A stretch of DNA of 64,000 nucleotides from Candidatus Levyibacteriota bacterium (GCA_963790825.1 CAWBPM010000002.1:97702-161701); one strand, 5' to 3'. Shown: positions 29,670-54,717, counted from the stretch's first letter. A program made the numbers and translations. Notes: a model not told the origin generated them from the letters alone.

Positions 29670-29700
29670 GTCTTACCTCTGCGCTAAATAGTACTGTACC

Positions 29701-30696: not shown

Positions 30697-30707
30697 AGCT
30701 CTAAAGT

Positions 30708-30770
30708 AGGTTCGAACGTCGACCTGCGACGATTCGAAGAATCTAGTCCCCTTATGGGGTAAGCGGAGCT
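30708..30770 (+). repeat. family-A structured repeat, copy A3
   Basis: AGGTTCGAACGTCGACCTGCGACGATTCGAAGAATCTAGTCCCCTTATGGGGTAAGCGGAGCT, 4 differences from A2. Begins 12 nt after the GNAT stop codon. Confidence 0.7.
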
Positions 30771-39514: not shown

Positions 39515-39515
39515 T

Positions 39516-39884: not shown

Positions 39885-39901
39885 TACGAAATTACCTGCC
39901 T

Positions 39902-41584
39902 ATGCTAATTACGAGTGAAGAGCTGAAAAAATTAGTTTTGAACACCAAGTTACTGGAAGAAAAAGAGTATCTGGTAATTGAAGAGTTTGCGAAAAATTCA
40001 AATGTCGATCCGGCTGAAGCTTTAGTTCAAAAAGACGTTATTTCTGATGAAAATTTAGGAATAATGATCGCGGACTTTTTAAAAGTACCTTTTGTAACTC
40101 TGTCTAAGCTTTCCATCCCTGAAGATGTTATTCGTATCGTCCCCGAAAGAATTGCCAGAAAGCACAAAGTAATTCCCTTCGCCAAGGATGAGTCGGGAAT
40201 AAAACTCGCGATGGTTGATCCGTCCAATAAAGAACTTGTAGATCTAATCTCAATGAAAACCGGAGATAAAGTTATCCCGCATCTGGCGACAGAGCGTGAT
40301 ATTTATAACACACTTAGAGTTTATCGAAAAGATTTACAAAAGACATTTCAGGATCTACTTACGGAAGAATTGAGAAAATCGGGAAGCATCGTTAATGAAG
40401 CACCGGTTGAGAAGATTGTTGACATGATCATAGACTATGCATATCAGGATAAAGCTTCGGATATTCATATCGAACCTGAAGAAAAAGATTCATTGGTTCG
40501 CTTTCGCATTGATGGCATACTTCACGATGTTCTGATTATACCCAAAGCACTTCATGAACAAGTAACAACCCGTATAAAAGTATTGTCCCGTCTTAGAACG
40601 GATGAACATATGGCTCCGCAAGACGGCAAACTTAGGATTAAATTAGAAGAGGAAGAGCTTGATATTCGTGTGTCAATTCTACCGATTTCGGGCGGAGAAA
40701 AGACAGTCATGCGACTTCTCGCTTCACGCTTCGGGCAATTTTCACTTCTGGATTTAGGTATGAATGAGAAAGATTTGAAAAAAGTAACGAACGCGTTCAG
40801 CAAATCATACGGCATGGTACTTTCAACAGGCCCGACAGGTTCGGGAAAAACGAGCAGTATTTACGCAATCTTAAAAATTCTTAATACCCGGGAAAAAAAT
40901 ATTACAACAATTGAAGATCCGGTTGAGTACAGGATCAAGGGTGTTAATCAGATCCAGGTAAATTCGAAAACTAATTTAACTTTTGCTAACGGTTTAAGAT
41001 CAATTTTAAGACAGGATCCGAACATTGTTTTCGTGGGAGAAATACGTGATAACGAAACTGCGGGAATTGCCGTAAATGCTGCTTTAACCGGACATTTAGT
41101 ATTATCAACACTGCATACCAATGATGCTGCTACTGCTCTGCCCCGTTTGACAGACATGCAGGTAGAGCCGTTTCTGGTTGCTTCAACTGTTAATGTTATT
41201 ATTGGTCAAAGACTGGTTAGAAAAATCTGCGAAATGTGCAAAGCAACAACAATGGCAAGTCGCTCGGAACTGGTAAAAAATCTATCCGAAGAAGTAGTAT
41301 CGAAGCATTTTGACCAGAAAGAAGAACTACGCGTCTTTAGGGGTCAGGGATGTAAAGTTTGCCACACTACAGGATATGCCGGACGTATCGGAGTATTTGA
41401 AGTTTTAGAGGTGAGTAAAACCATCAGAGCGCTTATTGCGAAAAAAGCTGATGCGGACATGATCGTGCAGAAAGCGATGGAAGAAGGGATGACCACTATG
41501 CTTGATGACGGACTTGAAAAAGTTGCCCGGGGAATAACGACTATTGAGGAAGTATTCAGAGTAACGAAAGTAGAAAACGCATGA
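39902..41584 (+). CDS. pilB: type IV pilus assembly ATPase PilB (GspE family)
   Basis: N-terminal GSPII_E_N/MshEN-like domain, Walker A GPTGSGKTSS, Asp box, His box and a Cys-x2-Cys...Cys-x2-Cys-type zinc motif (CEMCKA...CKVCHTTG). 560 aa. Confidence 0.85.
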   Translation: MLITSEELKKLVLNTKLLEEKEYLVIEEFAKNSNVDPAEALVQKDVISDENLGIMIADFLKVPFVTLSKLSIPEDVIRIVPERIARKHKVIPFAKDESGIKLAMVDPSNKELVDLISMKTGDKVIPHLATERDIYNTLRVYRKDLQKTFQDLLTEELRKSGSIVNEAPVEKIVDMIIDYAYQDKASDIHIEPEEKDSLVRFRIDGILHDVLIIPKALHEQVTTRIKVLSRLRTDEHMAPQDGKLRIKLEEEELDIRVSILPISGGEKTVMRLLASRFGQFSLLDLGMNEKDLKKVTNAFSKSYGMVLSTGPTGSGKTSSIYAILKILNTREKNITTIEDPVEYRIKGVNQIQVNSKTNLTFANGLRSILRQDPNIVFVGEIRDNETAGIAVNAALTGHLVLSTLHTNDAATALPRLTDMQVEPFLVASTVNVIIGQRLVRKICEMCKATTMASRSELVKNLSEEVVSKHFDQKEELRVFRGQGCKVCHTTGYAGRIGVFEVLEVSKTIRALIAKKADADMIVQKAMEEGMTTMLDDGLEKVARGITTIEEVFRVTKVENA

Positions 41585-42630
41585 AAACAGAACGAGTCAG
41601 CCTTTCCGGCAATGATAAAATCGGTTTTATCAGTAGTCTTACTACTATGCTTGGGGCGGGCATTCCAATTCTTGAAACAGTAGATTCGCTCCTTGAAGAC
41701 GCGAAAGGCGGACAGAAAAAGCTACTCGAAACCATGCGGGCAGATTTAACGCAGGGACAACATATCTATTTTACGTTTGCAAAGTTTCCCTTAATTTTCG
41801 ATAAAGTAACCATCAATATTATTCGTGCGGCAGAAGAGGCGGGGACATTGGATGTTACGCTCACGGATGTAAAAAACAATATTCAAAAGGAAATGGAATT
41901 TACCGATAGAATTCGCTCGGCGCTTATTTATCCTATGTTTATCGCCTTTATATTTGTTGCGGTACTTTTAATGATATTAATTGTTGTCGTCCCAAAAATT
42001 AGCACAGTATTTGTACAATTGAAAGTGAAGTTGCCATTACCGACAAAAATTCTCATATTTTTGTCAAATATGTTATTGAACTATACCATACCGGTAATTA
42101 TCGGCTTTATTGTTTTTACTATCCTGGCGATTTACATTTATAAAAGAGAAAAAGGATTCATCATTCAAACGCTAACATCTCTGCCGGTTATTTCAAATTT
42201 GATGAAAGAAATTGATTGGAACCGTTTTACCAGAAGCATGTTTTTACTTCTCAGCGCCGGTATTCCGATTACCAGTGCCTTGGAAATGACACAAGACGTG
42301 GTAACCAGAAAAGAAATAAAAAAAGCAATTAAGCACGCAAGCGATGTAGTATTTACGGGAAAAAAATTGTCGGAAGGCTTAAAAGATGAAAAGAATGTAA
42401 TTTCACCGATTGTCATCAGAATTATTGAAGCGGGAGAGAAAACCGGATCTTTGGATAAGGCTATGCAGGATGCCGCAGATTTTCTTGAATATCAGATATC
42501 CGGAAACTTAAAAGCAGCTACCGCGTTAATTGAACCGATGATGCTGGTTATTGTCGGGGTGCTTATCGGGGGAATGATGATCGCAATCATCGGTCCAATT
42601 TACAGTATGATAGGGCAAATAAGTCCATAA
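41581..42630 (+). CDS. pilC: type IV pilus inner-membrane platform protein PilC (GspF family)
   Basis: Two T2SS-F-like repeats with TM helices. 4-nt overlap with pilB. 349 aa. Confidence 0.75.
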   Translation: MKTERVSLSGNDKIGFISSLTTMLGAGIPILETVDSLLEDAKGGQKKLLETMRADLTQGQHIYFTFAKFPLIFDKVTINIIRAAEEAGTLDVTLTDVKNNIQKEMEFTDRIRSALIYPMFIAFIFVAVLLMILIVVVPKISTVFVQLKVKLPLPTKILIFLSNMLLNYTIPVIIGFIVFTILAIYIYKREKGFIIQTLTSLPVISNLMKEIDWNRFTRSMFLLLSAGIPITSALEMTQDVVTRKEIKKAIKHASDVVFTGKKLSEGLKDEKNVISPIVIRIIEAGEKTGSLDKAMQDAADFLEYQISGNLKAATALIEPMMLVIVGVLIGGMMIAIIGPIYSMIGQISP

Positions 42631-42634
42631 TCCT

Positions 42635-43150
42635 ATGCAGATACATCATTCGTTTTCCTCTTCCAAACAAGCCGGATTTCCCCCGGTTCAATCGGGGTTT
42701 ACTCTGGCGGAATTAATATTAGTTATGTTGATTTTTACTACTCTTGTCGGAATTGCGACCATTAACTTGGCGCATATCCAACGCCGATCATCTATGACCA
42801 GCAGCATAAACATGCTGGCAACCGACATGAAAGAACAGCAAGTAAAAGCAATGGTTGGGGATACCGAAAGCAGAGCAAGTCCCGATAATTACGGTATTTA
42901 TTTCGGTACAAGTTCTTATACGCTTTTTCATGGCACCTACTCTGCAACTGATAGCGCAAATACCGTTATTCCAATCGATGCTACATTGCATTTTGCGACT
43001 CCCGGAGCCAGTATTATTTTTACCAGAGAGAGTGGTGACGTGTTGAATTATAGTATAAATGCTAACCTGATCATAATTCAGGATATAACGAATGGAGAAG
43101 TGACTAAGCTTAAGTTTAATAAATTCGGTGCGATAATAGGAACATATTAA
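42635..43150 (+). CDS. prepilin-type N-terminal cleavage/methylation domain protein (minor pilin/pseudopilin)
   Basis: Class III signal QSGFTLAELILVMLIF (G|FTLxE). Confidence 0.65.
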   Translation: MQIHHSFSSSKQAGFPPVQSGFTLAELILVMLIFTTLVGIATINLAHIQRRSSMTSSINMLATDMKEQQVKAMVGDTESRASPDNYGIYFGTSSYTLFHGTYSATDSANTVIPIDATLHFATPGASIIFTRESGDVLNYSINANLIIIQDITNGEVTKLKFNKFGAIIGTY

Positions 43151-43153
43151 ATT

Positions 43154-43672
43154 ATGAAAAATTTTCTTTTCATTTCGAGTCATGATTATTTGAAAGGCTT
43201 TACTATTGTTGAATTCCTTATTTATATGGGAATACTTGTTATTTTACTTACTGCTTTAACTAGTGTTTTTACCTCAATTCTCGATGTATCTTCAGAGTCT
43301 CAGGCAAGTTCCGCAGTAGAGAGAAACGGAAAGTATATTCTGGCAAAACTGGCGTATGATATTCATCAGGCGACCGGTTCCGGTGTTTTGTCCCCGGTTT
43401 TGGGAAGTTCTTCAGGTAGCCTTAAACTTTCTCTCGGAGGTATAACAAGCACTTACAGCACGAATAATAGCGGCAATTTACAAGTAACATCAAATCTGGG
43501 CACGGATTTTCTAAGCAGCTATGATGCCAGTGTTTCCGGCTTAACATTTACCACATTGGGTAATAGCGGAGGAAAAAATTCAGTACAAATTAGCTTTACT
43601 TTGACTAGTTTGATGCAGCGAATATCCGGTAACGAAACAGCAAATTTTTCAACAACGGTTGGAACCAGATAA
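43154..43672 (+). CDS. prepilin-type N-terminal cleavage/methylation domain protein (minor pilin/pseudopilin)
   Basis: KGFTIVEFLIYMGILVILL class III signal. Ser/Thr-rich body. Confidence 0.6.
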   Translation: MKNFLFISSHDYLKGFTIVEFLIYMGILVILLTALTSVFTSILDVSSESQASSAVERNGKYILAKLAYDIHQATGSGVLSPVLGSSSGSLKLSLGGITSTYSTNNSGNLQVTSNLGTDFLSSYDASVSGLTFTTLGNSGGKNSVQISFTLTSLMQRISGNETANFSTTVGTR

Positions 43673-43679
43673 TTAATAT

Positions 43680-44078
43680 ATGCAAGAAAAAAATTTAATT
43701 AACAGTAATCAAAAGGAAGGGGGACAAGCGCTCATTACCTTGCTTTTTTTTGTAATCATTGCCATAACTATAACTTCGGCATCAGTTGTGGTATTAATCG
43801 CAAACAGCACCTCCGCGACGAAATACGAGGAAGGAATCAGGGCATTTTATGTAGCGGAAGGTGGAGCGGAAAACGCGGTTCTTCGATTACTGAGAGATCC
43901 TACTTATACAGGTGAAACATTGACAATTTCCGATGGAACTGCAACGATATCTGTAAGCGGGTCCGGTCCTTTTACAATTACGTCAAAAGGCGTTGTTGGA
44001 AATTTTACAAGAACAGTTCAAGTAAGCGCTGCCTACGTGAATAATATATTAAGCATTACTTCCTGGAAGGAAATTTAA
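43680..44078 (+). CDS. pilus-associated protein with N-terminal hydrophobic helix (PilX/pseudopilin-like, non-canonical leader)
   Basis: GGQALITLLFFVIIAITITSASVVVLIA hydrophobic segment without the G|FTLxE consensus. Located inside the minor-pilin run. Confidence 0.35.
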   Translation: MQEKNLINSNQKEGGQALITLLFFVIIAITITSASVVVLIANSTSATKYEEGIRAFYVAEGGAENAVLRLLRDPTYTGETLTISDGTATISVSGSGPFTITSKGVVGNFTRTVQVSAAYVNNILSITSWKEI

Positions 44079-44080
44079 CA

Positions 44081-45196
44081 ATGAGTAAGGGAATTATCTA
44101 TTTACAAAAAGAACAATTTGATTTATATCTCAACGATCAACAAAAAATCTTTACCTGCCAATTTACAAAAGATCTGGTAAATTACATGGAAGTAATTAAT
44201 AAAGAAGCGTTTGAAAATCTTATTACCTCATTTATCACGACGAATAAACTGCAACCGGCAAATCTCATTATTGTTTTAGCAAATTCTATAGTTTTTACAA
44301 AAGAAATCACAAATCCTCAACCAACTCCAAACGATGCAAAATCTGCTCCTGATAAATTAAAGTTAATTGCAGAAGAAAAGGCCACGAAAGATAGAGAGGG
44401 ATTATTGATCCAACAATTTATTGACAACATACCCTTTGCCGAAGTAAGTCATAAAATTATTTCTCTCCCGACCGGAAAAAAAGTAATTGCCGCCAATACG
44501 GATTTATATGACAGAATTAAAAATGTTTTTGCAAAATCAGGATTTATTATAGAAGCAGTAGCACCTATCGCAGTTTTAGATGCCAGCATCAGTGCACAAC
44601 CAAATTTTTCCCTGCAAATGGGGCAGCTTATGCTTGGGAAATATGACATATTGAGACAAAATAGTTTGGTGGTTAATTATCAGAATGAATTAATAAAATC
44701 CGGTAACAAAAATAAACATGCAGTGGGAAAAAGTACGAATAAACGAGCCTTTATTCTTTCCGGAGTTTTGGGGTTACTACTTCTTGTTCTGGGAGTCATG
44801 GTATATATGACCTATTTTGCTTCACAAACAACGTCTAAAAAACCTTTACCCGGTGCTTTAACTCCGGCTTCCGCCAGTCCCACCGGCCTACCGGTTGCAT
44901 CGGGATCGGCACAAGTTATTCCAGATAACTCGGGTGTTACTATTATTGCAACAGAAGGGGAGGATAGTCTTTCTACCACGCTTAGAGAAAATCTCACTTC
45001 TTTAGGGTTTACCAATGTTAGCTCAGTCAGCTCAGGACTTACCAGTATTCCTCGGACAACAATTTCTTTTACATCAAGTACATCTGCCGATGTAAAAGTT
45101 AAAATAGTAAATGCTGTACAAGCATTATCACCCGAAGCCGTGGTCGCTCCGGATATTAACAGTAGCGGTATTACTATTAATTTATCTAATAAATAG
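44081..45196 (+). CDS. pilus assembly protein, PilM-N-terminal-like cytoplasmic domain fused to PilN-like TM/periplasmic part (tentative)
   Basis: About 210 cytoplasmic residues starting GIIYLQKEQFDLYL (PilM-like start), one TM helix (AFILSGVLGLLLLVLGVMVYM), then a Ser/Thr/Pro-rich periplasmic tail. Sits between the pseudopilins and the major pilin. Confidence 0.3.
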   Translation: MSKGIIYLQKEQFDLYLNDQQKIFTCQFTKDLVNYMEVINKEAFENLITSFITTNKLQPANLIIVLANSIVFTKEITNPQPTPNDAKSAPDKLKLIAEEKATKDREGLLIQQFIDNIPFAEVSHKIISLPTGKKVIAANTDLYDRIKNVFAKSGFIIEAVAPIAVLDASISAQPNFSLQMGQLMLGKYDILRQNSLVVNYQNELIKSGNKNKHAVGKSTNKRAFILSGVLGLLLLVLGVMVYMTYFASQTTSKKPLPGALTPASASPTGLPVASGSAQVIPDNSGVTIIATEGEDSLSTTLRENLTSLGFTNVSSVSSGLTSIPRTTISFTSSTSADVKVKIVNAVQALSPEAVVAPDINSSGITINLSNK

Positions 45197-45199
45197 CTT

Positions 45200-45766
45200 C
45201 CTTTATTTTCCCTCTTGACAATTAGGAAAAGGATATGATTTACTAAATGCAGAGATATGAAAACAACTGCCCCGATAAATAAACTAGCTAAAGGTTTTAC
45301 CCTCATCGAGCTCTTAGTTGTTATCGGCATTTTAGCAATTCTTTTGGCAATCACCTTAATCGCAATTAATCCGGCCAGACAATTCTCCCAGGCAAATAAT
45401 ACAAAAAGAAGCAGCGATGTGAATGCTATTCTTAATGCCGTCAATCAGTATATGGCAGATAATAAAGGTGCTCTTCCCACAGGTATTAGTACGACAGCCC
45501 AGACGATTAACGGAGTAGATTTTGGAGCCATGTGCACTGCATTGGTTCCTACATATATAGCCGCACTTCCGGTAGATCCATTATCTAATGCAAATGCGGT
45601 ACAGTCTACAGATTGCACGAGTACTACATGGAATACAGGATACGTAGTACAGCAGTTAACAGGTGGCAGCAATAGGCTTACGGTATCCGCACCGGGAGCA
45701 GAGCTGGGGGCCACTATCTCCGTAACCAGATAAAGAGTTTCTCCTTATTAATTTAATTATTATTAA
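45200..45766 (+). repeat. 567-bp perfect direct repeat, copy 1 (pilin promoter + pilin gene + 33 nt 3' flank)
   Basis: Identical base-for-base to 48076-48642 by direct comparison of the printed sequence. The flanks diverge immediately outside both ends. Confidence 0.85.
45257..45733 (+). CDS. pilA: type IV major pilin (prepilin with 13-aa leader, G|FTLIELLVV)
   Basis: MKTTAPINKLAKG|FTLIELLVVIGILAILLAITLIAINP class III signal. 158 aa, with two Cys near the C-terminus (disulfide loop). A TTGACA hexamer lies 35 nt upstream. Confidence 0.8.
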   Translation: MKTTAPINKLAKGFTLIELLVVIGILAILLAITLIAINPARQFSQANNTKRSSDVNAILNAVNQYMADNKGALPTGISTTAQTINGVDFGAMCTALVPTYIAALPVDPLSNANAVQSTDCTSTTWNTGYVVQQLTGGSNRLTVSAPGAELGATISVTR

Positions 45767-46144
45767 GTTTTATTTTGTTTAGTTTGTTGACGAATGAATC
45801 CTATTTAATATACTTATCTCATCTGTGAGTCAGATTGAAAAAGCAATTAAAAGTCCAATTCCTTGTTCGGAAGAACAAGCCTCACTTAGTAATATTCAAA
45901 GACCTACACTTGACCAGGCCAGGAGGGCAGTTAAAGAAATGGATGCATCATATACCACCCAAAGACTAAAAGGCTTCGAAGATTTAACTATTCCTAAACG
46001 AGGCCAAAATCGCATGATTCTCCAAGGCGATAATTAGTAGTAATGATACTGACTCCTTTTTTAATCGCTGCTATATAAAGAAATTATGAAGATGTTACTT
46101 AATCAGAGTGAAAAAATATGATATGAGGAGAAGAGAATTTATTT

Positions 46145-46381
46145 CTATTTCTTTTTGGATTTTCCTTTACTTGATGATTGATTTACAAGATAGAGGAGAC
46201 CGACCAGGAAACCTCCACCGATAATTGCAAAGATAACATACTTTTGCAGCATTGCAGGATCATTATATAAATAGTTTATGCTAAAGACAATCTTAACAAA
46301 AAGCACGAAAACCAATGCCAAGATAAGAAATGCTATAACTGCTTTTGCGTTACTGTTATGATTTCCTTTTTCAAGCTTCAT
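46145..46381 (-). CDS. small membrane protein (two TM helices, Lys-rich C-terminus)
   Basis: 78-aa ORF inside the segment bracketed by the 567-bp direct repeats. Confidence 0.35.
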   Translation of the reverse strand: MKLEKGNHNSNAKAVIAFLILALVFVLFVKIVFSINYLYNDPAMLQKYVIFAIIGGGFLVGLLYLVNQSSSKGKSKKK

Positions 46382-46465
46382 AATTTATTATTGATACATA
46401 CTCAACCAATTGTCAAGAGGCAATTTATTAAAGAATATAGTTTTTCCTTAGATATTAAGTAAGTC

Positions 46466-47926
46466 TCATTTTGTAAAAATTGTATAGTTACCAATATTTT
46501 TACTTTGGCTATAATGATTTTTGATAAATTGTACAATAGGACTAAGATCCTGACTATTTGTTTTTCCTAAGATAATCATTGGTACTTTTTTCTTTGTTAA
46601 ACTATTGATTATATTCTTCTGATAATTCGTTTCTACCTCGATCGGAGAAATTAAATCAGACCGTGTAGCATTTATTCTATCAGCTAAAAAATAAACTAAC
46701 GGAACATATTGATATATATAAATAAAATCGTTGGGTTTTGTTTTTGTCTGAATATACTTAGTTATCTGCATTGTTCTTTCAATTTCCTGATTAGAAAGAA
46801 AAACGTGAAGCCTGGGGTCTTGAGCGAAAGTTGTATCATACTGCATGGGAGGATTCCACCTATAATATCCGTAAAAATAAGCAGAATACAATCCAAGCCC
46901 TGTAATAAATATGAGAATAAGAAGAAAAAACTTCTTATTAAGTTCACTTTTATTATTACTGATGATAATTGCCAGGGGGAGGCAAGATATTGCAAGTAAA
47001 GGAACAAAGTGATCATAGTCGGTAGTCGGGCGTATACCAAGTAAATAAAATGTAGCAGTAAAAAGTGGTACGATTAAAAGATTTTTATTCGATTTTAAGC
47101 AAATAAAAAATGAGATAACAGAAAGTGTAAGGGGGGAAGTATAAAGAATGAATTTAAGTATTTTTATAATAAATGATCCTTGGTAAATAAATTGCGTGTC
47201 CAGAGTTTTACCGAAAAGTATCCGCTCGAAAGTATAGATATACATGTCTTTAATAAACGGCATAAATGAAGAAGTAAAAAGTAGTATTCCTGTGATTACT
47301 ATTCCGGAAGTTAAAAGACCGAACAAAAAGTAAAAAACATAGATCTTTTTTTTAAAAAAAAGAAAAGGCAAGAATGAAACGAGAAACAGACCGATACCAA
47401 AATTTTGTTTAGAAAGAAAAATCAGAATGACCATAATGCCGGACATAAAAAAGTACACCCCCTTCTGCCTAATGATTCCCAGCAAATAAAAAAATATTGT
47501 GTAGAGATAAAAGCATACTGCAAACATTGTCGGCCAGGGAAAATTGATATGAGCCGGTCCCCAGGCTATAAAAAATAAAAGCGACAACAAAACAAGAGGA
47601 ACCTTCTTGGTTATAAGTCTTACTATTTTATAGAGGGCAAAAAGTGACAACAGTGAAATAGCCAAACTGGCCAAACGTCCTGAGAATACACTCTCTCCGA
47701 ACGTATGAAGAAATACAGAGGTAATGAGAAATGATAGCGGAGTATATGTAACATCAAAATCCCGATATGGAACTTGTCCATGCACGACCCTTAGTGCAGA
47801 GTTTAAGATATACCCCTCATCCGAATATATTATTCCTTTAAATTGGAAAAAAATAAGAATATTAAGAAGTACCAATATAAAAAAAAGAAACAGTAAATTG
47901 TTTAGAGAAAATAATTTATCTCTCAT
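46466..47926 (-). CDS. GT-C fold glycosyltransferase, ArnT/PMT (GT39/GT83)-like polytopic membrane protein
   Basis: IIYSDEGYILNSALRVVHGQVPYRDFDVTYTPLSFL resembles the DE...Y...A...G.W..P motif of ArnT/PMT-family enzymes in the first periplasmic loop. More than 10 TM helices and a soluble C-terminal domain. Located between duplicated pilin genes. Confidence 0.5.
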   Translation of the reverse strand: MRDKLFSLNNLLFLFFILVLLNILIFFQFKGIIYSDEGYILNSALRVVHGQVPYRDFDVTYTPLSFLITSVFLHTFGESVFSGRLASLAISLLSLFALYKIVRLITKKVPLVLLSLLFFIAWGPAHINFPWPTMFAVCFYLYTIFFYLLGIIRQKGVYFFMSGIMVILIFLSKQNFGIGLFLVSFLPFLFFKKKIYVFYFLFGLLTSGIVITGILLFTSSFMPFIKDMYIYTFERILFGKTLDTQFIYQGSFIIKILKFILYTSPLTLSVISFFICLKSNKNLLIVPLFTATFYLLGIRPTTDYDHFVPLLAISCLPLAIIISNNKSELNKKFFLLILIFITGLGLYSAYFYGYYRWNPPMQYDTTFAQDPRLHVFLSNQEIERTMQITKYIQTKTKPNDFIYIYQYVPLVYFLADRINATRSDLISPIEVETNYQKNIINSLTKKKVPMIILGKTNSQDLSPIVQFIKNHYSQSKNIGNYTIFTK

Positions 47927-48075
47927 AAGTATGACAAGTATATAGGAAAAGGATTTTTCTTTCCATCGAATTAGTTTCTGGTTTCATTTACTATAATTCG
48001 TTTTACCCTGTTTGTTGATATTTTCTTATTTTTACTTGATTCTATTTACCTTAAATTTAGCTTCCGTTATGTTTC

Positions 48076-48642
48076 CCTTTATTTTCCCTCTTGACAATTA
48101 GGAAAAGGATATGATTTACTAAATGCAGAGATATGAAAACAACTGCCCCGATAAATAAACTAGCTAAAGGTTTTACCCTCATCGAGCTCTTAGTTGTTAT
48201 CGGCATTTTAGCAATTCTTTTGGCAATCACCTTAATCGCAATTAATCCGGCCAGACAATTCTCCCAGGCAAATAATACAAAAAGAAGCAGCGATGTGAAT
48301 GCTATTCTTAATGCCGTCAATCAGTATATGGCAGATAATAAAGGTGCTCTTCCCACAGGTATTAGTACGACAGCCCAGACGATTAACGGAGTAGATTTTG
48401 GAGCCATGTGCACTGCATTGGTTCCTACATATATAGCCGCACTTCCGGTAGATCCATTATCTAATGCAAATGCGGTACAGTCTACAGATTGCACGAGTAC
48501 TACATGGAATACAGGATACGTAGTACAGCAGTTAACAGGTGGCAGCAATAGGCTTACGGTATCCGCACCGGGAGCAGAGCTGGGGGCCACTATCTCCGTA
48601 ACCAGATAAAGAGTTTCTCCTTATTAATTTAATTATTATTAA
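48076..48642 (+). repeat. 567-bp perfect direct repeat, copy 2
   Basis: Identical to 45200-45766 (offset 2876 bp). Confidence 0.85.
48133..48609 (+). CDS. pilA: type IV major pilin, exact duplicate of 45257-45733
   Basis: Encoded protein identical over all 158 aa. Lies inside repeat copy 2. Confidence 0.8.
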   Translation: MKTTAPINKLAKGFTLIELLVVIGILAILLAITLIAINPARQFSQANNTKRSSDVNAILNAVNQYMADNKGALPTGISTTAQTINGVDFGAMCTALVPTYIAALPVDPLSNANAVQSTDCTSTTWNTGYVVQQLTGGSNRLTVSAPGAELGATISVTR

Positions 48643-48767
48643 TCCATTATTTATTTGTATTTTGTTTAATTTTATTTCTTATGAAGATAGCCTTTTTAAG
48701 TATACAACTTTCAAAATATTCCCTATTGACAAATAATTGAAAAAACTGATTAAATTAGTGCATAGAT

Positions 48768-49244
48768 ATGAAAACAACTGCCCCGATAAATAAACTAGCT
48801 AAAGGTTTTACCCTCATCGAGCTCTTAGTTGTTATCGGTATTTTGGCAGTATTACTGGCAATTACTTTAGTTGCCATCAATCCGGCCAGACAATTTTCCC
48901 AGGCAAATAATACAAAACGAAGCAGTGACGTAAACTCCATTCTGGATGCAATTAATCAGTACATGGCAGATAATAAAGGTGCTCTTCCCACAGGTATTAG
49001 TACAACTGCCGCAACAATTAATGGGACGGGCTTTACAGCTCTCTGTAGCGCTTTAGTACCTACTTATATAGCCGCTCTTCCGACTGATCCATTATCGAAT
49101 AATTCTGCCGTACAGTCCAGTAGCTGTACAAGTACAACATGGAATACAGGATACGTAGTACAGCAGTTAGTAGGAGGAGGTAATAGGGTAACTGTTTCTG
49201 CTCCTATGGCTGAGCTTAGTGCAACTGTTTCAGTAACGAGATAG
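48768..49244 (+). CDS. pilA: type IV major pilin, divergent third paralogue
   Basis: Same leader and N-terminal helix (MKTTAPINKLAKGFTLIELLVVIGILA). About 30 substitutions concentrated in the central/C-terminal variable region. Own TTGACA-N17-ATTAAAT promoter-like sequence upstream. Confidence 0.8.
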   Translation: MKTTAPINKLAKGFTLIELLVVIGILAVLLAITLVAINPARQFSQANNTKRSSDVNSILDAINQYMADNKGALPTGISTTAATINGTGFTALCSALVPTYIAALPTDPLSNNSAVQSSSCTSTTWNTGYVVQQLVGGGNRVTVSAPMAELSATVSVTR

Positions 49245-49268: not shown

Positions 49269-50297
49269 ATGTCTTTGCCTAAAATATCTGTAAATATTCC
49301 ATTTCGTGTAACAGGTAATGCAAATATTGCCCTCAAATCTCTCCTCTACGTTGATTATCCAAAACAACTTTTTGAAATAATTCTTATAGAAGGAAATCAG
49401 CCGGCAGCTCAGCGCAACGCGGGTATTCGTCTATCAAAAGGTGATATTATTTATTTTTTAGATAACGATTCAAGAGTTAGAAAAAACTCGCTGCGTCTAA
49501 TAGCAAATGAGTTCTCATACTCTTCTGCAGCAGCTCTTGGAGGCCCTAGTCTTACATACAATCAAGGCAAGAATGATCTCAGTCAATTAATTGGTTTTGC
49601 TTTAGAAACCTTTTTTGGTTCACTTCGCATGCGTTATCGTTACAGCAAAAAAACAACGGGTGAAGCATCAGAATATGAACTAATCGGAGCGAATCTCGCA
49701 ATGCGCAAAGCTGTTTTGAATAAGGTTGGCGGATTTGATGAAAGGTTTTATCCAAATGAAGAGACTGAGCTACTCAGAAGACTTAAAGATAAAGGGTATA
49801 TTTTGCAATACAAAAGAGAACTATTTATCCATCGGAAGCACAGAAAAGATCTGAGTGAGCTGACGAAGCAATTTTATCAATATGGAAGCGGGCGCATGAA
49901 GCAAATTAGGATAAACCCAAAGATAGAAGATATATTATTTATACTACCGGTTTTGTTCGAGGGCTATCTCATTACTCTTATTTTTTATCACACGCTTTTT
50001 TACGTATCTCCACTTCTTTTCTATTTGCTGCTTGCAATTACTACTTCAGTAAAAGCTGCTATTAAATACAAACGGCCTGATTTATTTTTTTCTTTGCCTC
50101 CACTTTTCTTACTTATCCACCTTTCTTACGCTACCGGTGAAATTACAGAGTATTTAAAACCCTTGTTTAATAAGCAACTGAAACTTCCTAAGCGTACCAT
50201 TAAACATAAGATTAAAGCGATTAAAATAAAAACGTATACAGAGGAGCTTTCCAGTGTTGAGAAACTTATTTCTTTTCAGCCAAAACGAGGTAATTAA
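49269..50297 (+). CDS. glycosyltransferase family 2 protein with C-terminal TM helices
   Basis: GT-A fold motifs (IILIEGNQP...DNDS...) in the first ~230 aa, then a membrane-embedded C-terminus. Confidence 0.6.
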   Translation: MSLPKISVNIPFRVTGNANIALKSLLYVDYPKQLFEIILIEGNQPAAQRNAGIRLSKGDIIYFLDNDSRVRKNSLRLIANEFSYSSAAALGGPSLTYNQGKNDLSQLIGFALETFFGSLRMRYRYSKKTTGEASEYELIGANLAMRKAVLNKVGGFDERFYPNEETELLRRLKDKGYILQYKRELFIHRKHRKDLSELTKQFYQYGSGRMKQIRINPKIEDILFILPVLFEGYLITLIFYHTLFYVSPLLFYLLLAITTSVKAAIKYKRPDLFFSLPPLFLLIHLSYATGEITEYLKPLFNKQLKLPKRTIKHKIKAIKIKTYTEELSSVEKLISFQPKRGN

Positions 50298-51048
50298 AGC
50301 ATATTGTATGAGATGGAAATATTTTATCGAGCAAGATGCAGAGATAAGAAAATGCAAGAAGAATAGGATAAAAAAGCAGTGCGAACAAGTAGAAAATTTT
50401 GTTTTTGTTTGCTATCTCAATAAGATAATCCATTAGTAATACAATAATTGTAGAAAAAATAGAACCTTCCTTTACTACTTTTAGTACCGTACATTGATTC
50501 CTATCAAATAATTTACGCAAGCCATATTCAGTAAAACGGAAATAATCTCTTGGGATCTCATGAAGACTCCAGGTTAGTGGGGCGCTGATAAGAATCTTCC
50601 CTCCTTTTTTTACCACCCTAACCATTTCACGAACACATAACTCAGGATTGGAATGATGTTCAAGGACTTGAAAAGAAACAACAGTATCAAAATTATTATC
50701 TTTAAATGGCAAGAGCAAAGATTTTTTATAATTGTTATCAAAAAATAGATCTGGTTTTTCACCAAGGATTCCTTTCGACCTTGAATAGTCGGGAAAATCA
50801 ATACCAACATAACTACTAACAGCAGAAAAAACTCCCTGATAGGGTTTTTCTCCACAACCAACGTCCAGTAATTTTCCATAAAATTTGTATCTGTGCGCTA
50901 GTAGTTTAATATCGCGTAGTAAGTAATATTTAGCTAAAAAATGAGGGGCTATGAGAAAATAAAGCGGTTGCAAACTCTTCCCAAAAGATTTTACAAATCC
51001 GGAGGCCTCAATAATACGCTTATTTTTTATATTTTTTTTCATTATCAA
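50266..51048 (-). CDS. class I SAM-dependent methyltransferase
   Basis: Motif I LLDVGCGEKPYQ. 260 aa with a C-terminal hydrophobic segment. Convergent 32-nt overlap with the GT2 gene. Confidence 0.6.
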   Translation of the reverse strand: MIMKKNIKNKRIIEASGFVKSFGKSLQPLYFLIAPHFLAKYYLLRDIKLLAHRYKFYGKLLDVGCGEKPYQGVFSAVSSYVGIDFPDYSRSKGILGEKPDLFFDNNYKKSLLLPFKDNNFDTVVSFQVLEHHSNPELCVREMVRVVKKGGKILISAPLTWSLHEIPRDYFRFTEYGLRKLFDRNQCTVLKVVKEGSIFSTIIVLLMDYLIEIANKNKIFYLFALLFYPILLAFSYLCILLDKIFPSHTICFNYLVLAEKK

Positions 51049-51056
51049 AATTAATT

Positions 51057-52229
51057 TTAATCATACATTAATAATTGGTACATTGCAGAATATAATTTTT
51101 CTCTATTGAATCTATTTTGTATAAAAGATTGTATCGCATGACGATTAAAAGGAGTACCATTTATACAATAAATAATCTTATTAATAAATTGTTCCTTATT
51201 CTTAACTAAATAGCCATTTTTATTGTTAACTATTATATCATTACACCCCTGAATATTATAGGAAATGACTGGTAATCCTAAACTTTGCGCTTCGAGTAAA
51301 ACATAAGGAAAACTTTCCCATTTACTGGTACAAAGCAGCAAATCATTGTCTTGGTATACATTCGCCGTAGCTTTATTTTCTATATATCCTAAATAATGAA
51401 CATTTGACCATTTTTTACTCAGTTTTATGATATCTTTTCTCAACTCTCCGTCGCCCGCAATATTCCATACAATCTTATTTTGATAACCTGAACTATTCAT
51501 GCTATCTATAATTTCAATCAAGTCGAACACTCCTTTTTGTTCAGTCAGCCTTCCGATCCAAAGCAAAGCAAAGGTACCTTTTTTGCTGGTAATTTTAGTT
51601 TTACTAATCGTAGCCTTATGAGAGAAATAGGAAAAGTCAAATGGGTGATATATTTTTTGTATTTCTTGTTTAGGTATTAATTTCGTTAATCTTTCCTCAT
51701 CAAATGTATTCATAACATGCAGTCTTAATGCTCCGGATAAAGCAAATTTATAAATCAGCGAGGAGTAAAGCAGATTATGCAGTTTTGACTGTAACGATTT
51801 TGTAATCGGATAAAAGGATGGAATATGGAGTCCATAAATAACAGGAGGAAGATTTTTGTAACCAATAACATATTTCAAAAGAATGACTTCTAGAAGATTA
51901 TTCGAACTGTAGATTACATCAAATTTACCCAGTTTCTTTTGCATATCTTTTAATCCTGAAACAGTAACATAGCGGACATCTCCCAATTGTTTTTTAATAT
52001 GTCCGCTTTTTTCTTTATATATTTTTCTATCTTGCAAACCTAAAAAATAAATATTATAGAAAAAAAGAGTTTTTTGCAGCATTTTTTCATCAAATGTCAA
52101 AATAGTAATATCCAAATCAGGATATCTTTCTTTTATACCGGTGGCAGTATCGATAAAATATTTTGCTAGCCCGCCGCCATATTCAAGCAGTAAGTAGTTA
52201 AAAAAAACAATCTTCATATTTCTAGTCAA
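51057..52229 (-). CDS. glycosyltransferase family 1/4 (GT-B) protein
   Basis: C-terminal E-X7-E-like region FPYVLLEAQSLGLPVISYNIQGCNDII typical of GT4 retaining transferases. Confidence 0.65.
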   Translation of the reverse strand: MTRNMKIVFFNYLLLEYGGGLAKYFIDTATGIKERYPDLDITILTFDEKMLQKTLFFYNIYFLGLQDRKIYKEKSGHIKKQLGDVRYVTVSGLKDMQKKLGKFDVIYSSNNLLEVILLKYVIGYKNLPPVIYGLHIPSFYPITKSLQSKLHNLLYSSLIYKFALSGALRLHVMNTFDEERLTKLIPKQEIQKIYHPFDFSYFSHKATISKTKITSKKGTFALLWIGRLTEQKGVFDLIEIIDSMNSSGYQNKIVWNIAGDGELRKDIIKLSKKWSNVHYLGYIENKATANVYQDNDLLLCTSKWESFPYVLLEAQSLGLPVISYNIQGCNDIIVNNKNGYLVKNKEQFINKIIYCINGTPFNRHAIQSFIQNRFNREKLYSAMYQLLMYD

Positions 52230-54279
52230 TTAATTTATTTCTAATTGCGGATTTTACATATGTATTCTCTGTAATATCCTCATTAAATTTAGCTTTGTAA
52301 TTTTGCTTGAATTTCTGAATCGTTAACGGAGTAACGTGACATTCTTTATCTAAAATATAGAGCTGGCCATAATATGTTCTCCAAATAGAGTAATTGATTA
52401 TTGCCTTTTTCATATTAGAAAGGGAATTAATACAGTCCTTGCTTCCTTTAAACTGGCTAATTGCCAGACCCGAATATGCGCTTGGATTTTGTTCATCGAT
52501 CCGGATAGCTCTTTGGTAATAGTTTTCTGCAGTTTTCGGATCGTGATAAAAAGACATGAGAAAATCTCCGGCCCGGACCAGAGTATTGGAGTAAAATGAA
52601 GGAATTTCGGGGGTAATGAGACCATCTTCGTCTAATTGTAATTCGTCGAGTCTGACAGGGTGCATGATTTTCCAATTATCCTCGAACGCTTGTATGTAAT
52701 CGGCTTTTTTGTAAACTGTTTTATTACTAATTATCTCACCCACCAAACCTCTTGGTAATAAATAAAATCCTCTCGGAACAAATGAGACATCAAAAGTGGC
52801 GTATAATTTTCTATTCTTGCTTATTTCCTGAAGTGTGTTATTTAAGACATTTTTTAGTTTAACTGCGGGATGAGATTTATGATATTTATTAATTTCCAGG
52901 TCAAGATACACATTCCCGCCGACTCCCAGAGGATTAATAATGTCTACATCCGGTCTGAACTTAACGACGAAATGCTCATACCAGATATTAAAAGTAGTTG
53001 TATCTCCAGATACAAGAAGAACAGAATTTTCAGGAAGTTCACTTAAAATATCTTTCGCATACGTATTACCGATCTGAGTGTGAGACATATCGGTTTTCTG
53101 AAAATTATAATAGATTAAATCAAACGGAATGAGCAGGAAATAGGCCAGAATTAGAGTGGTGTATATCTTTTTTGAAAGCTTTGAGTCCAATAATTCCTTA
53201 AGATAAAGAAAACCAAAAGGAACAAGAAGCATAAAAATAACATAAGGAAGAACATAAAAGCGTTCACTAATTCCCCAGGAAGTCGTAGTAGTAATAACAG
53301 GTGCAGAGTAATATACAAAGAACGGGCCGGATAAAAGAAAAGACAGAAGAATACTGATCAGAAGCAGTTTATTTTTTTTGTAGAGCTTTATAATTCCTAA
53401 GAGCGCAACAGCACAGATTTGATATGAAAAGGTAGCAATCAGAGTCTTGAAAAAATCTCCCACAACAATTAGTTTCACCCGTGTCGGGATCTGATCCACG
53501 AGGCCGGGTGCAGTTCCGTAATCTTTTCTTAAGATAAGATCCAGAAAATTTTTTAGGCTCGATGGATTATCCCAATTAACAATCGGGTTGGATAATGCGC
53601 TAAACGGTACGTAGATATAAGGTGATAGTCCCAAGAAAAAGAATAAAAAAGCAATAAAAATGTGTCTTCTTTGTGAAAAAATAACCGACGATCTTAAAAA
53701 AAGTAAAAAAAGAATTCCGGGAAAAATAAGAATAATAGTCTGGTGATGTGTCAGAGATAATCCGCAAAAAAATGAAAGCAAATAAAAATAGCGAATCTGT
53801 TTATCTTGGTAAAATACATAGGTAAAATAAAAAATAATAATTACAAAAAGATTGTTCAGACCAAATACTTCGGGAATTTCTGCATGCAGCCAGAAATAAT
53901 AAGAAAATGCTAAAATCGCAGTCGAAAGAAGAGAGAGAAAGAAATTTTTTGTAATTCTGTAAGATAATTTATAAAAGAAAATAAGGCCGATAAAGGAAGC
54001 AATCGTTGAAACCAATGCAACTTTTGTGACCGGCGGGAGAGAAATTGGTAGATGAGAAAAGAGAAAACCCAACATAATAAAAAGCGGATATCCCGGGGGA
54101 TGGGCAATGCCATGAAAAAAAGATGCGGTTACCAAATCTCCAATATCGCCACTATAGATATCTGAAGTTATGTTATGAAGGTAAAGGCCAAGAATAAGCC
54201 CAAAAAAAACAAATAAGACAATCTTTCTAACCTGGTTAGTCACAGGTACTATTATAGCAACACCGGTACTCCTTGACAT
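52222..54279 (-). CDS. GT-C fold glycosyltransferase-like membrane protein (DUF2723/PMT_2-like) with C-terminal TPR region
   Basis: SGDIGDLVTASFFHGIAHPPGYPLFIMLGFLF contains the HPPGYP signature recalled for DUF2723. About 12 TM helices, then a soluble C-terminus with TPR-like repeats (YYQRAIRIDEQNPSAYSGLAISQF). Confidence 0.5.
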   Translation of the reverse strand: MSRSTGVAIIVPVTNQVRKIVLFVFFGLILGLYLHNITSDIYSGDIGDLVTASFFHGIAHPPGYPLFIMLGFLFSHLPISLPPVTKVALVSTIASFIGLIFFYKLSYRITKNFFLSLLSTAILAFSYYFWLHAEIPEVFGLNNLFVIIIFYFTYVFYQDKQIRYFYLLSFFCGLSLTHHQTIILIFPGILFLLFLRSSVIFSQRRHIFIAFLFFFLGLSPYIYVPFSALSNPIVNWDNPSSLKNFLDLILRKDYGTAPGLVDQIPTRVKLIVVGDFFKTLIATFSYQICAVALLGIIKLYKKNKLLLISILLSFLLSGPFFVYYSAPVITTTTSWGISERFYVLPYVIFMLLVPFGFLYLKELLDSKLSKKIYTTLILAYFLLIPFDLIYYNFQKTDMSHTQIGNTYAKDILSELPENSVLLVSGDTTTFNIWYEHFVVKFRPDVDIINPLGVGGNVYLDLEINKYHKSHPAVKLKNVLNNTLQEISKNRKLYATFDVSFVPRGFYLLPRGLVGEIISNKTVYKKADYIQAFEDNWKIMHPVRLDELQLDEDGLITPEIPSFYSNTLVRAGDFLMSFYHDPKTAENYYQRAIRIDEQNPSAYSGLAISQFKGSKDCINSLSNMKKAIINYSIWRTYYGQLYILDKECHVTPLTIQKFKQNYKAKFNEDITENTYVKSAIRNKLID

Positions 54280-54313
54280 TCATCAGTATCCATGTTACGA
54301 TTTTCTTTAAGTT

Positions 54314-54697: not shown

Positions 54698-54717
54698 AAT
54701 TCTAAAATATAAAATAT

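Follow-up and report, generated by a model that had tools for sequence, protein, structure and literature searches.

The locus lies in the genome of a tiny uncultured CPR (Microgenomates) bacterium, a Levyibacteriota/Roizmanbacteria-like genome, and was analysed within a 64-kb window, namely the whole stretch of DNA under study, from whose first letter all positions are counted. It is a three-unit type IV pilin array that closes a pilus operon. Directly upstream of pilin unit 1, on the same strand, come PilB, PilC and three minor-pilin-like genes, and the gene order of the operon recurs in about 30 relatives. The features of the operon, of the array and of the module between its first two units are the following:

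39113-45196, plus strand: type IV pilus operon (Pfam matches, N_methyl among them, and gene order)
39113-39514, plus strand: Hpt (Pfam Hpt)
39516-39884, plus strand: response regulator (Pfam Response_reg)
39902-41584, plus strand: PilB ATPase (Pfam T2SSE, 426 bits)
41581-42630, plus strand: PilC platform (Pfam T2SSF, 157 bits)
42635-43150, 43154-43672 and 43680-44078, plus strand: three minor-pilin-like genes
44081-45196, plus strand: p371, a 371-aa membrane protein
45171-45199, plus strand: last 26 nt of p371 (stop included) and a 3-nt spacer, with decayed homology to 48032-48063
45200-45766, plus strand: repeat copy 1, pilin unit 1, coding sequence 45257-45733 (N_methyl, TIGR02532)
45767-45813, plus strand: decayed homolog of the spacer 48655-48705 downstream of copy 2
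45825-46037, plus strand: 70-aa orphan ORF with a GTG start
46145-46381, minus strand: orf78, a conserved 78-aa membrane protein with two helices (homologs at pilin/pilus loci)
46466-47926, minus strand: intact 486-aa membrane glycosyltransferase, predicted GT-C fold (PMT_2, AlphaFold2, Foldseek)
47927-48075: divergent spacer from the GT-C start to pilin unit 2, colinear with a relative (L121)
48076-48642, plus strand: repeat copy 2, pilin unit 2, coding sequence 48133-48609
48643-48710, plus strand: spacer between units 2 and 3, a decayed homolog of 45768-45813 beyond its first nucleotides (TCCATTATTTA)
48711-49244, plus strand: pilin unit 3, an older paralog, coding sequence 48768-49244 (158 aa), with its own TTGACA

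The two repeat copies match exactly over 567 nt (100% identity), the adjoining bases differ on both sides, and the pair is the sole long perfect repeat within the window; a chance origin of such a match is effectively impossible. Each copy consists of a 57-nt 5' part with a TTGACA element (45214-45219 in copy 1, 48090-48095 in copy 2), the whole coding sequence of a 158-aa pilin and the 33 nt past its stop codon. Exact comparison reproduces the repeat and these contents as they had been described in the original prediction, and shows its edges to be sharp, and the small membrane protein and the GT-C glycosyltransferase are indeed found on the opposite strand in the 2309 nt between the copies (45767-48075). 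Each edge of the perfect core falls at an indel of 11-12 nt: the 12 nt CCGTTATGTTTC that abut copy 2 upstream are missing at copy 1, and the first 11-12 nt after copy 2 (TCCATTATTTA) are without counterpart after copy 1.

The protein encoded by units 1 and 2 has the N-terminus of a type IV pilin, with a leader ending in Gly, Phe at +1, Glu at +5 and a hydrophobic alpha-1 (MKTTAPINKLAKG followed by FTLIELLVVIGILAILLAITLIAI), and it matches both Pfam N_methyl (32.9 bits against a cut-off of 21.2) and TIGR02532 (30.2 bits against 16.3). It belongs to a large, highly conserved family (7,249 matches); of 14 pilins from it, 13 are preceded by TTGACA. The conserved promoter element of its own, the last-gene position and the large family give indirect support to its prediction as the major filament subunit. 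The third unit of the array, absent from the original prediction, has diverged from units 1 and 2 (86% aa identity and 79.5% nt identity over the coding sequence, dS 0.93, dN/dS 0.11), with 22 substitutions that fall mostly in the C-terminal globular half.

In the module, orf78 encodes two hydrophobic stretches and a Lys-rich tail, and a promoter-like site on the minus strand (46416-46387) matches at 11 of 12 positions. Its homologs adjoin the pilin in L121 (85%), are divergent from the pilin in L107 (418-654), lie directly upstream of Hpt-RR-PilB in L067 (1641-1919) and are convergent at the end of the pilus cluster in L124, so that, in this clade, orf78 is commonly found beside pilin genes or pilus clusters. 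The 2.3-kb segment had been regarded as an insert between the pilin copies, a description that is disfavoured, as orf78 is normal at the ends of the pilus clusters of relatives and the junctions are old. The 70-aa ORF is probably not a gene: it has no match in Pfam, NCBIfam or PHROG, only its self-match was found among 1.84 billion representative proteins, and it sits within about 265 nt that are missing from L121.

The 486-aa protein is confidently predicted to be a GT-C-fold enzyme. Its match to PMT_2 (27.4 bits, cut-off 26.1) is accompanied by an AlphaFold2 model (pLDDT 89.8, pTM 0.91) with about 15 helices followed by a 120-aa C-terminal alpha/beta domain, and Foldseek relates this model with probability 1.00 to STT3, ArnT (5f15, TM 0.61), DPY19, PglB, AglB, ALG12 and AftA. 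The alignment of 44 homologs has 25 invariant columns; immediately behind the first transmembrane helix, D36 and G38 are invariant and E37 is conserved in at least 90%, and D36-E37-G38 is the predicted catalytic motif, in keeping with the acidic motif of the first extracytoplasmic loop of GT-C enzymes. Comparison with the relative (dN/dS 0.055 over 108 codons, dS >2) points to strong purifying selection. The donor may be a polyprenyl-phosphate-linked sugar, used on the outer face of the membrane, with which the nearby GT2 and sugar-phosphate genes are compatible.

The age of this arrangement can be judged from L121, in which the order is GT-C N-terminus, 207 nt, pilin, orf78 and GT-C C-terminus, that is, both junction types of the window. 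L121 is colinear with two stretches of the window, 47604-48609 (78% identity along 1013 nt) and 46120-46504 (79.5%), its 207-nt spacer between GT-C and pilin is colinear with the window over the whole length, and a 32-nt block of the divergent spacer (47936-47967) has a single mismatch between the two. The pilin of L121 is separated from that of the window by a dS of 0.89, whereas the two copies of the window show zero differences. On the other side of the pilin, the distance from the stop codon to orf78 is 146 nt in L121 against 411 nt in the window, with no alignment, and the downstream spacer of L121 aligns to neither flank of the window. Both junction types occur in L121-L123, on contigs of only 0.9-1.6 kb that leave pilin copy number and topology ambiguous. 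That a single pilin of L121 has parts of the module to its left and right could reflect collapsed twins, a tandem arrangement, a circular form or the existence of two GT-C paralogs. The three assemblies of this relative differ at seven sites, all of them in the pilin coding sequence and none in 558 nt of adjoining flank (Fisher p = 0.004), which suggests two near-identical copies collapsed in assembly, with haplotypes about 98.5% identical.

Further traces of an older duplicated unit may persist beyond the perfect core. Nowhere in the window do the 60 nt upstream of copy 2 match better than at 45171-45210 (score 30, next-best 28), a homology that drops to a score of 18 and is not significant (p 0.49) once the opening 11 nt of the repeat are left aside; the spacer between GT-C and pilin of L121 aligns to 45177-45256, holds TTAATTTATCT exactly and so bridges this side. 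Downstream, the local alignment of the two flanks scores 28 (p about 0.006 against shuffles), and of about 8,500 windows, both strands included, each flank has the other as its best match, with modest margins (28 against 25 and 36 against 31). With moderate confidence, the duplicated unit would formerly have reached to 45171-45199 on the left and to 45767-45813 on the right; the confidence is no higher because the tracts are short (about 30-50 nt), AT-rich and of modest significance.

These data bear on the possibility that the 567-nt unit was copied across the GT-C module very recently and has not yet mutated or, as a variant, that unit and module were duplicated in tandem and then partly deleted. 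Zero divergence over 567 nt and sharp edges are what such an event would leave, and distant relatives such as L040 carry uninterrupted pilin arrays, while most relatives have a single pilin. Nevertheless, a recent duplication is quite improbable, as the succession of GT-C start, pilin, orf78 and GT-C end already exists in a relative at a pilin dS of 0.89, the diverged homology beyond the perfect core is not expected of a fresh copy with such end-points, and the model calls for either a pair of events or a dispersed duplication of an unusual kind. Of the two origins first proposed, very recent duplication or ongoing gene conversion, the second is therefore retained, and duplication around the segment is disfavoured by the relative that holds both junctions and by the decayed homology at the edges.

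The explanation preferred here, to which we assign a probability of about 0.6, is that the arrangement is old and that its 567-nt cores were recently homogenised by gene conversion. Units 1 and 2 would be old duplicates separated by the long-resident, opposite-strand module of small membrane protein and GT-C; intrachromosomal gene conversion, i.e., non-reciprocal homologous recombination, would recently have equalised the promoter element, the coding sequence and the short 3' flank, and the converted tract would end on each side where an indel of 11-12 nt breaks the older homology. The outcome would be two identical promoter-plus-gene units that supply a double dose of one major pilin, beside one variant pilin. 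In a neighbour-joining tree of 13 pilins, the sequences group by genome and not by array position, with units 1 and 2 of the window joined to unit 3 and with the three pilins of L040 (p1, p2 and p3) clustered together. L040 offers an independent precedent: p1 and p3, on either side of p2, differ from each other by 1 aa but 40 nt (dS 0.37). They share no identical stretch longer than 92 nt (P = 0.0025), and the pattern is mosaic, which would indicate patchy conversion and the retention of two copies of the same protein. Selection alone cannot produce zero synonymous differences between units 1 and 2, given the large divergence of unit 3.

Concerted evolution of this kind is known from tufA/tufB of Salmonella and from rRNA operons, in which it proceeds by RecA-dependent gene conversion. 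As in these systems, intact dispersed copies are identical or nearly so within a genome and diverge between lineages, and their flanks are not identical; unlike tufA/tufB, the pilin copies are only 2.3 kb apart, in direct orientation and with promoters of their own, and the conversion is deduced from comparative sequence. In Neisseria, silent, promoterless and partial pilS cassettes diversify the one expressed gene, pilE, and so generate antigenic variation. The locus would share with pilE/pilS a non-reciprocal recombination among several pilin copies at the pilus locus, and it differs in that two complete, promoter-bearing genes are homogenised. The locus, which reveals no new mechanism, would be a tidy but fairly ordinary case of concerted evolution, and it is a clean natural case of two identical pilin genes, both predicted to be expressed, which would imply selection for dosage. 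Type IV pili are regarded as the chief means by which CPR bacteria contact their hosts and take up DNA and, to our knowledge, almost nothing is known about the variation and decoration of their pilins.

A perfect repeat is also an assembly hazard, as had been pointed out from the start, and two slightly different copies could have been made alike by consensus polishing, or the graph could have been wrongly resolved, in which case the chromosome would have a single pilin and the repeat plus module would exist in addition, as a separate or tandem form. The 567-nt exact repeat exceeds short-read length, and the relative, which apparently holds two pilin haplotypes about 98.5% identical, makes a slight true divergence conceivable here as well. 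When run ERR11594402 is assembled independently with k=31, the graph branches exactly at the repeat ends and gives no order; the contigs break exactly 30 nt into the repeat, one (L001) being equal to window 45737-48105 and another (L037) ending at 45229, and from where L001 breaks off it follows that the repeat end has a second continuation as well. These contigs join the repeat start both to the upstream gene p371 and to the module, and the repeat end to the module, and they confirm the edges that they cover; for the order of the copies along the chromosome, and for their being identical inside, the only source is the deposited contig. The latter is a single contig of 751,017 nt, which suggests long or highly accurate reads, a 2.9-kb circle devoid of a replication gene is implausible, and the remnants in the flanks are consistent with a former tandem array on the chromosome. 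On this evidence an artefact is judged very unlikely.

Long perfect direct repeats recombine efficiently, and they permit deletion or amplification of the intervening DNA and not its inversion; the inversion of the module that had been envisaged is excluded, as the repeats are direct. With 567-nt perfect direct repeats as efficient substrates, the pilin-plus-GT-C unit might act as a self-homogenising cassette that, by RecA-dependent pop-out or tandem amplification and with no dedicated recombinase, yields cells with zero, one or several GT-C copies and a variable pilin dose, a process compatible with gene conversion. If so, the surface used for host contact and its glycosylation would be subject to phase variation, and the module-pilin-module contigs of the relative would be physical traces of the tandem or circular form. 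The three assemblies of the relative read module, pilin and module with no branch to chromosomal flanks, which a tandem or circular form explains more simply than the chance loss of both other junctions. Yet coverage of the relative is about 2x, so that absent branches weigh little; a Pfam scan of the neighbouring ORFs detected no domain of a recombinase or integrase (about 33.5-63 kb, some ORFs being without any match and a few small ones outside the scan); and the dN/dS of the GT-C (0.055) together with the old arrangement argues for a stably kept module. The contigs would not reveal a deletion form in any case, since all its junctions exist in the full form too. A cassette of this sort has, in our judgement, a slim chance of being real.

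A role of the GT-C in pilin or envelope glycosylation may be proposed. Other glycosylation genes follow the array:

49269-54279: glycosylation cluster (Pfam; synteny with pilin arrays of relatives)
49269-50297, plus strand: GT2
50266-51048, minus strand: methyltransferase
51057-52229, minus strand: GT4
52222-54279, minus strand: 685-aa TMEM260-like/PMT_2 GT-C, with a weak TPR match
54718-57592, minus strand: genes for phosphoglucose isomerase, a mannose-6-P isomerase-like protein and phosphomannomutase (Pfam bact-PGI_C, MannoseP_isomer, PGM_PMM I-IV)

The original prediction had assigned the 486-aa GT-C to the pilin. The enzyme would then be a dedicated pilin glycosyltransferase, an analogue of TfpW, and the identical copies would keep the flanking substrate genes co-regulated. 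Its GT-C fold, the adjacent pilin genes, which it has on either side in the window as well as in a single diverged relative (L121), the conserved divergent spacer shared by the GT-C and the pilin promoter and the precedent of TfpW, a GT-C encoded beside pilA (bioRxiv 10.1101/2020.04.19.049825), speak in its favour. The assignment is nonetheless unlikely. Homologs of the enzyme (33-54% identity, 36 loci) occur in general surface-glycan clusters, with no pilin near them in 31 GTDB loci and 5 further contigs (fetched flank of up to 10 kb) and, reciprocally, none of 80 pilin loci (about 45 of which are at least 5 kb long) has a homolog nearby, so that the linkage is confined to the window and L121 and does not extend across the family. 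Furthermore, Pfam detects neither a TPR nor another acceptor-binding domain in the enzyme, whose C-terminal domain is small and alpha/beta, unlike that of TfpW, and the pilin-syntenic enzyme of relatives is the downstream TMEM260-like GT-C.

In L040, the genes for GT2, methyltransferase, GT4 and the TMEM260-like protein follow three tandem pilins directly, in the same order and on the same strands (42-50% aa identity), and a homolog of the TMEM260-like protein adjoins a pilin also in L045 and L115. Hence, this cluster is the candidate for a conserved pilin-linked glycosylation system. TfpW of P. aeruginosa group IV is a 646-aa protein with a C-terminal TPR domain, encoded downstream of pilA in the same direction (bioRxiv 10.1101/2020.04.19.049825). 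The 486-aa enzyme resembles the pilA-tfpW-tfpX system in being a polytopic GT-C, encoded beside a pilin, whose first external loop carries an acidic motif, and departs from it in the missing TPR match, the opposite strand and a family not otherwise linked to pilins. Judged by architecture, the 685-aa protein is the closer analogue of TfpW, with a TPR_11 match that is sub-threshold (21.3 against a cut-off of 26.8).

TfpO/PilO of P. aeruginosa and PglL of Neisseria are pilin-modifying O-oligosaccharyltransferases of the Wzy_C type, sometimes encoded beside pilA. Both their fold and their family (Wzy_C/O-antigen ligase-like) set them apart from the GT-C described here, and the Pfam scan of ORFs found no Wzy_C protein at the locus. 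Among CPR bacteria, Saccharibacteria are described, in the available passages of one study, as having conserved type IV pili in two distinct pilus systems, several pilin genes and pilin O-glycosylation at sites predicted in silico (PMC11623550). The locus has in common with them, as far as those passages go, the type IV pili of a CPR bacterium, multiple pilin genes and a predicted O-glycosylation of pilins; identical pilin duplicates or a GT-C between pilins are not mentioned in these passages (PMC11623550).

Pilin arrays, two GT-C enzymes and sugar-precursor genes come together in a clade-specific link that would point to O-glycosylation of the pilin or surface in Microgenomates. The locus is useful as a caution in annotation and assembly and as a lead for glycoproteomics. 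The isomerase and mutase genes at 54718-57592 plausibly supply sugar precursors to the adjacent cluster.

Two stretches of the window, 45200-45766 and 48076-48642, are identical across 567 nt, with differing flanking bases at both edges, and no further long perfect repeats occur in the 64-kb window. The original prediction of a perfect pilin repeat is true base for base, with sharp edges, and the promoter-like TTGACA, the complete pilin CDS and the 33-nt 3' flank are all found in each copy. The small membrane protein and the 486-aa glycosyltransferase do lie between the copies on the opposite strand, the latter being a GT-C enzyme by its predicted fold. A third pilin unit had been overlooked. 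The features are as follows.

Upstream, same strand as the pilins: type IV pilus operon with Hpt, response regulator, PilB, PilC, three minor-pilin-like genes and a 371-aa membrane protein (p371)
45200-45766, + strand: pilin unit 1, with 57 nt 5' carrying TTGACA, the full 158-aa ORF and 33 nt 3' of the stop
45767-48075: interval (module) of 2309 nt, genes on the - strand
46145-46381, - strand: 78-aa membrane protein (orf78)
46466-47926, - strand: 486-aa protein
48076-48642, + strand: pilin unit 2, composed as unit 1
48711-49244, + strand: diverged pilin unit 3 with its own TTGACA
Downstream of pilin 3: GT2, followed on the - strand by a methyltransferase, a GT4 and a 685-aa TMEM260-like/PMT_2 GT-C with a weak TPR match
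Beyond the glycosylation genes: PGI, a mannose-6-P isomerase-like protein and phosphomannomutase

The repeated ORF is a type IV pilin, with the leader ...KG/FTLIELLVV and scores above the N_methyl and TIGR02532 cut-offs. Unit 3 is 79.5% identical to it in nucleotides and 86% in amino acids (dS 0.93, dN/dS 0.11); most of the 22 substitutions fall in the C-terminal globular half, and the identical runs shared with unit 3 measure 71, 41 and 33 nt. Since the TTGACA, which lies inside the repeat, is kept 5' of 13 of the 14 family pilins examined, each unit is probably transcribed independently. No intrinsic terminator was detected downstream of pilin 1, so it may be speculated that antisense read-through into orf78 and the GT-C gene is possible. 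Rfam and tRNA scans gave no matches in or near the region. A 70-aa ORF at 45825-46037 was rejected as a real gene, being an orphan inside about 265 nt that are missing from a relative.

Independent assembly evidence comes from run ERR11594402, where the 486-aa protein and p371 each recur on short Logan contigs. One of these (L001, 2369 nt) equals window 45737-48105 with 0 mismatches, spanning the interval and reaching exactly 30 nt into either repeat, and another (L037) terminates exactly 30 nt inside copy 1. In a k=31 graph, contigs ending 30 nt into the repeat indicate branching exactly at the repeat edges. These contigs join the repeat start both to p371 and to the module, and at the repeat end they show the junction with the module; the break point of L001 implies that this end, too, continues in a second way. 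The order of the pieces and the internal identity of the copies rest on the deposited 751,017-nt contig, as the k=31 graph gives neither. An exact look-up of the pilin protein returned no record; the pilins are present in NCBI and ENA and absent from Logan, probably because 31-mers common with unit 3 fragment the graph. That assembly or polishing created the twin copies is improbable, given that the independent graph agrees at the repeat edges it covers and that a 2.9-kb circle without rep is implausible. The locus is useful as an assembly caution.

Relatives were found by a metagenome scan anchored on the pilin (80 loci), used instead of one anchored on p371, which yielded zero relatives. Their common layout is PilB-PilC-minor pilins-p371 homolog-one pilin, and tandem arrays are a minority. 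Homologs of orf78 adjoin pilins or pilus clusters in three contigs (L107, L067 and L124). This family of membrane proteins of about 80 aa recurs at the borders of pilus clusters of the type IV kind, and is marked by an IxGGGFLxGLLYLVN motif together with two hydrophobic stretches and a tail rich in Lys; no Pfam family scored above threshold. Its members are:

Window, 46145-46381, - strand: orf78
L107, 418-654: orf78 homolog
L067, 1641-1919: orf78 homolog
L124, 6559-6819: orf78 homolog

The closest homolog (85%) is found on contigs L121-L123, from soil metagenome assemblies, in the order GT-C C-terminal end, orf78, convergent 158-aa pilin, 207-nt spacer and GT-C N-terminus; all three cross orf78 into the pilin, and only the two longer ones reach the GT-C N-terminus. 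The pilin of this relative is 158 aa long and 89% identical to that of the window, with dS 0.89, a deep divergence. Its pilin-spacer-GT-C part is colinear with window 47604-48609 (78% across 1013 nt), and its orf78-GT-C part with 46120-46504 (79.5%). Because a relative at pilin dS 0.89 has both kinds of junction found around the pilin copies of the window, these junctions would predate the split between the two. The module was also considered as mobile DNA and rejected, as it shows no terminal inverted repeats, transposase, integrase or PHROG matches and orf78 is native to pilus loci; plasmid and phage collections gave no match to the region. A foreign origin suggested by low GC (insert 31.5% vs window 37.6%) was likewise discarded, since the glycosylation genes nearby (30-36%) and the GT-C gene itself (31.6%) are just as AT-rich.

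Homology extends outside the perfect core. The 60 nt 3' of copy 1 and the spacer 3' of copy 2 are reciprocal best matches over the whole window on both strands (shuffle p about 0.006), with modest margins over the next-best (28 vs 25 and 36 vs 31). The 60 nt 5' of copy 2 match best at 45171-45210, comprising the last codons of p371 and the first 11 nt of the repeat, by a small margin (30 vs 28); taken by itself, the portion 5' of the repeat gives no significant match (p 0.49). The spacer of the L121 relative bridges these upstream flanks: it carries TTAATTTATCT, identical to the 3' end of p371, and a 12-nt segment present at copy 2 and missing at copy 1 also occurs in it. On either side, then, perfect identity ends at an 11-12-nt indel within older decayed homology, as would be expected of a gene-conversion tract blocked by heterology. 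Being short and AT-rich, the flank signals count as moderate support.

The original prediction had offered a recent duplication around the insert, or ongoing gene conversion. A truly recent duplication of the pilin unit agrees with the zero divergence and conflicts both with the junctions of the diverged relative and with the flank remnants, and is quite unlikely. Gene conversion is favoured by those junctions, the decayed flanks and the clustering of paralogs by genome in a tree of 13 pilins. In the reading we prefer, with a probability of about 0.6 and resting on sequence comparison, the arrangement is old and its cores were recently homogenised: an old pilin array would hold the old GT-C/orf78 module between units 1 and 2, and intrachromosomal gene conversion would have homogenised the 567-nt cores. 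The outcome would be two identical promoter-gene units, which double the dosage of the major pilin, with a variant paralog next to them. The observation made originally is confirmed, and its interpretation is supported in part; repeat-mediated inversion is ruled out, the repeats being direct.

A second case is provided by the independent Microgenomates contig L040 (8863-10504), where pilins p1 and p3 flank p2, which is 81% identical. The products of p1 and p3 differ at one residue, with 40 nt differences between the genes (dS 0.37). The longest stretch that the two have in common without a mismatch is 92 nt, more than chance would predict (P = 0.0025). This makes L040 a second lineage with two genes for one pilin plus a variant, the identity being patchy.

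L121-L123, three ENA assemblies of the closest relative, differ at seven sites, all in the pilin CDS (559-1035), six of them synonymous and one being Q82R; the 558 nt of orf78/GT-C sequence next to it are free of differences (Fisher p = 0.004). This is the pattern that two near-identical copies collapsed by the assemblers would give; strain variation focused on the pilin is the alternative. The topology in this relative may be collapsed twin copies, a tandem array or a circle. Repeat-mediated pop-out or amplification of a pilin plus GT-C unit is mechanistically possible, and a hint of it lies in the contigs of the relative, which run module-pilin-module without branches to chromosomal flanks, but their coverage is only about 2x, and we give this explanation little credence. 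The locus is of known kinds, combining concerted evolution of duplicated genes with a pilin locus adjoined by GT-C enzymes; it is of interest chiefly as a starting point for work on how pilins are dosed and glycosylated in CPR bacteria.

The 486-aa protein has a marginal PMT_2 match, and since a PDB sequence search and NCBIfam returned nothing, its fold was established via structure prediction. The AlphaFold2 model (pLDDT 89.8, pTM 0.91) matches STT3, ArnT, DPY19, PglB, AglB, ALG12, AftA and Emb at probability 1.00; with so confident a model, the predicted GT-C assignment is sound. When 44 homologs are aligned, 25 columns are invariant, among them D36 and G38, right after the first helix, and E37 is at least 90% conserved. 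Against the L121 relative, the N-terminus has dS above 2 and dN/dS 0.055, which points to strong purifying selection in both lineages.

Relatives of the enzyme occur in Levyibacteriota, Roizmanbacteria and other Microgenomates MAGs, which places the window in a CPR genome of small size. Around homologs of 33-54% identity, in 31 GTDB loci and five further contigs with fetched flanks of up to 10 kb, no pilin was found, the gene neighbours being GT2, GT4, other PMT_2, Wzy_C, acyltransferase and methyltransferase genes; nor was a homolog near the pilin in the 80 pilin-anchored loci, about 45 of them at least 5 kb long. A dedicated pilin glycosyltransferase is accordingly a doubtful role, as linkage to pilins is wanting family-wide, even though the gene adjoins pilins in two diverged lineages and has in common with the pilin a conserved divergent spacer, in which a block of 32 nt is nearly invariant. 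This block (47936-47967, CAAGTATATAGGAAAAGGATTTTTCTTTCCAT) has 1 mismatch to the relative within DNA of about 78% identity. The palindrome that it contains, GGAAAAG...CTTTCC, is imperfect, and the block may be a regulatory site common to both genes or form a hairpin in a 5' UTR.

The TMEM260-like GT-C is the candidate for a conserved pilin-linked glycosyltransferase, as it follows directly after the pilins in four loci:

Window, 52222-57592, - strand: with GT4, methyltransferase, GT2, PGI, PMI and PMM
L040, 10590-16143: with GT4, methyltransferase and GT2
L045, 11365-15935: with GT4 and methyltransferase
L115, 10618-12516: TMEM260-like GT-C

In L040, three pilins with nothing between them are followed by GT2, two methyltransferases, GT4 and the TMEM260-like enzyme, agreeing with the window in order and strands at 42-50% aa identity. 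Taken together, the four loci suggest that some Microgenomates conserve an O-glycosylation cluster linked to pilins and possibly based on mannose. As a large GT-C with a weak TPR match, the TMEM260-like enzyme is closer in architecture to P. aeruginosa TfpW than is the 486-aa protein.

Elsewhere in the window, a PPDK/PEP synthase-like enzyme (36735-39000, - strand) is spread over two overlapping ORFs, with PPDK_N at 37921-39000 and PEP-utilizers domains at 36735-37982; a sequencing error, a frameshift or a genuinely split gene could each explain this. A 'putative phage metallopeptidase' domain (76.5 bits) occurs in a 127-aa protein (58297-58680, - strand), whose gene has a DNA polymerase III delta-like gene on one side and on the other a 391-aa ORF that is unannotated. 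Finally, an 81-nt repeat family on the + strand (28375-28455, 29683-29763 and 30690-30770) lies beside gene ends, two of the three copies abutting or overlapping stop codons of + strand genes (DUF2268, GNAT). It has no match in Rfam and folds as three short hairpins, the second of which reads GAUUC/GAAUC in two copies and UCCAC/GUGGA in the third, all pairs being changed on both sides with pairing kept; the repeat could be an undescribed structured intergenic element.
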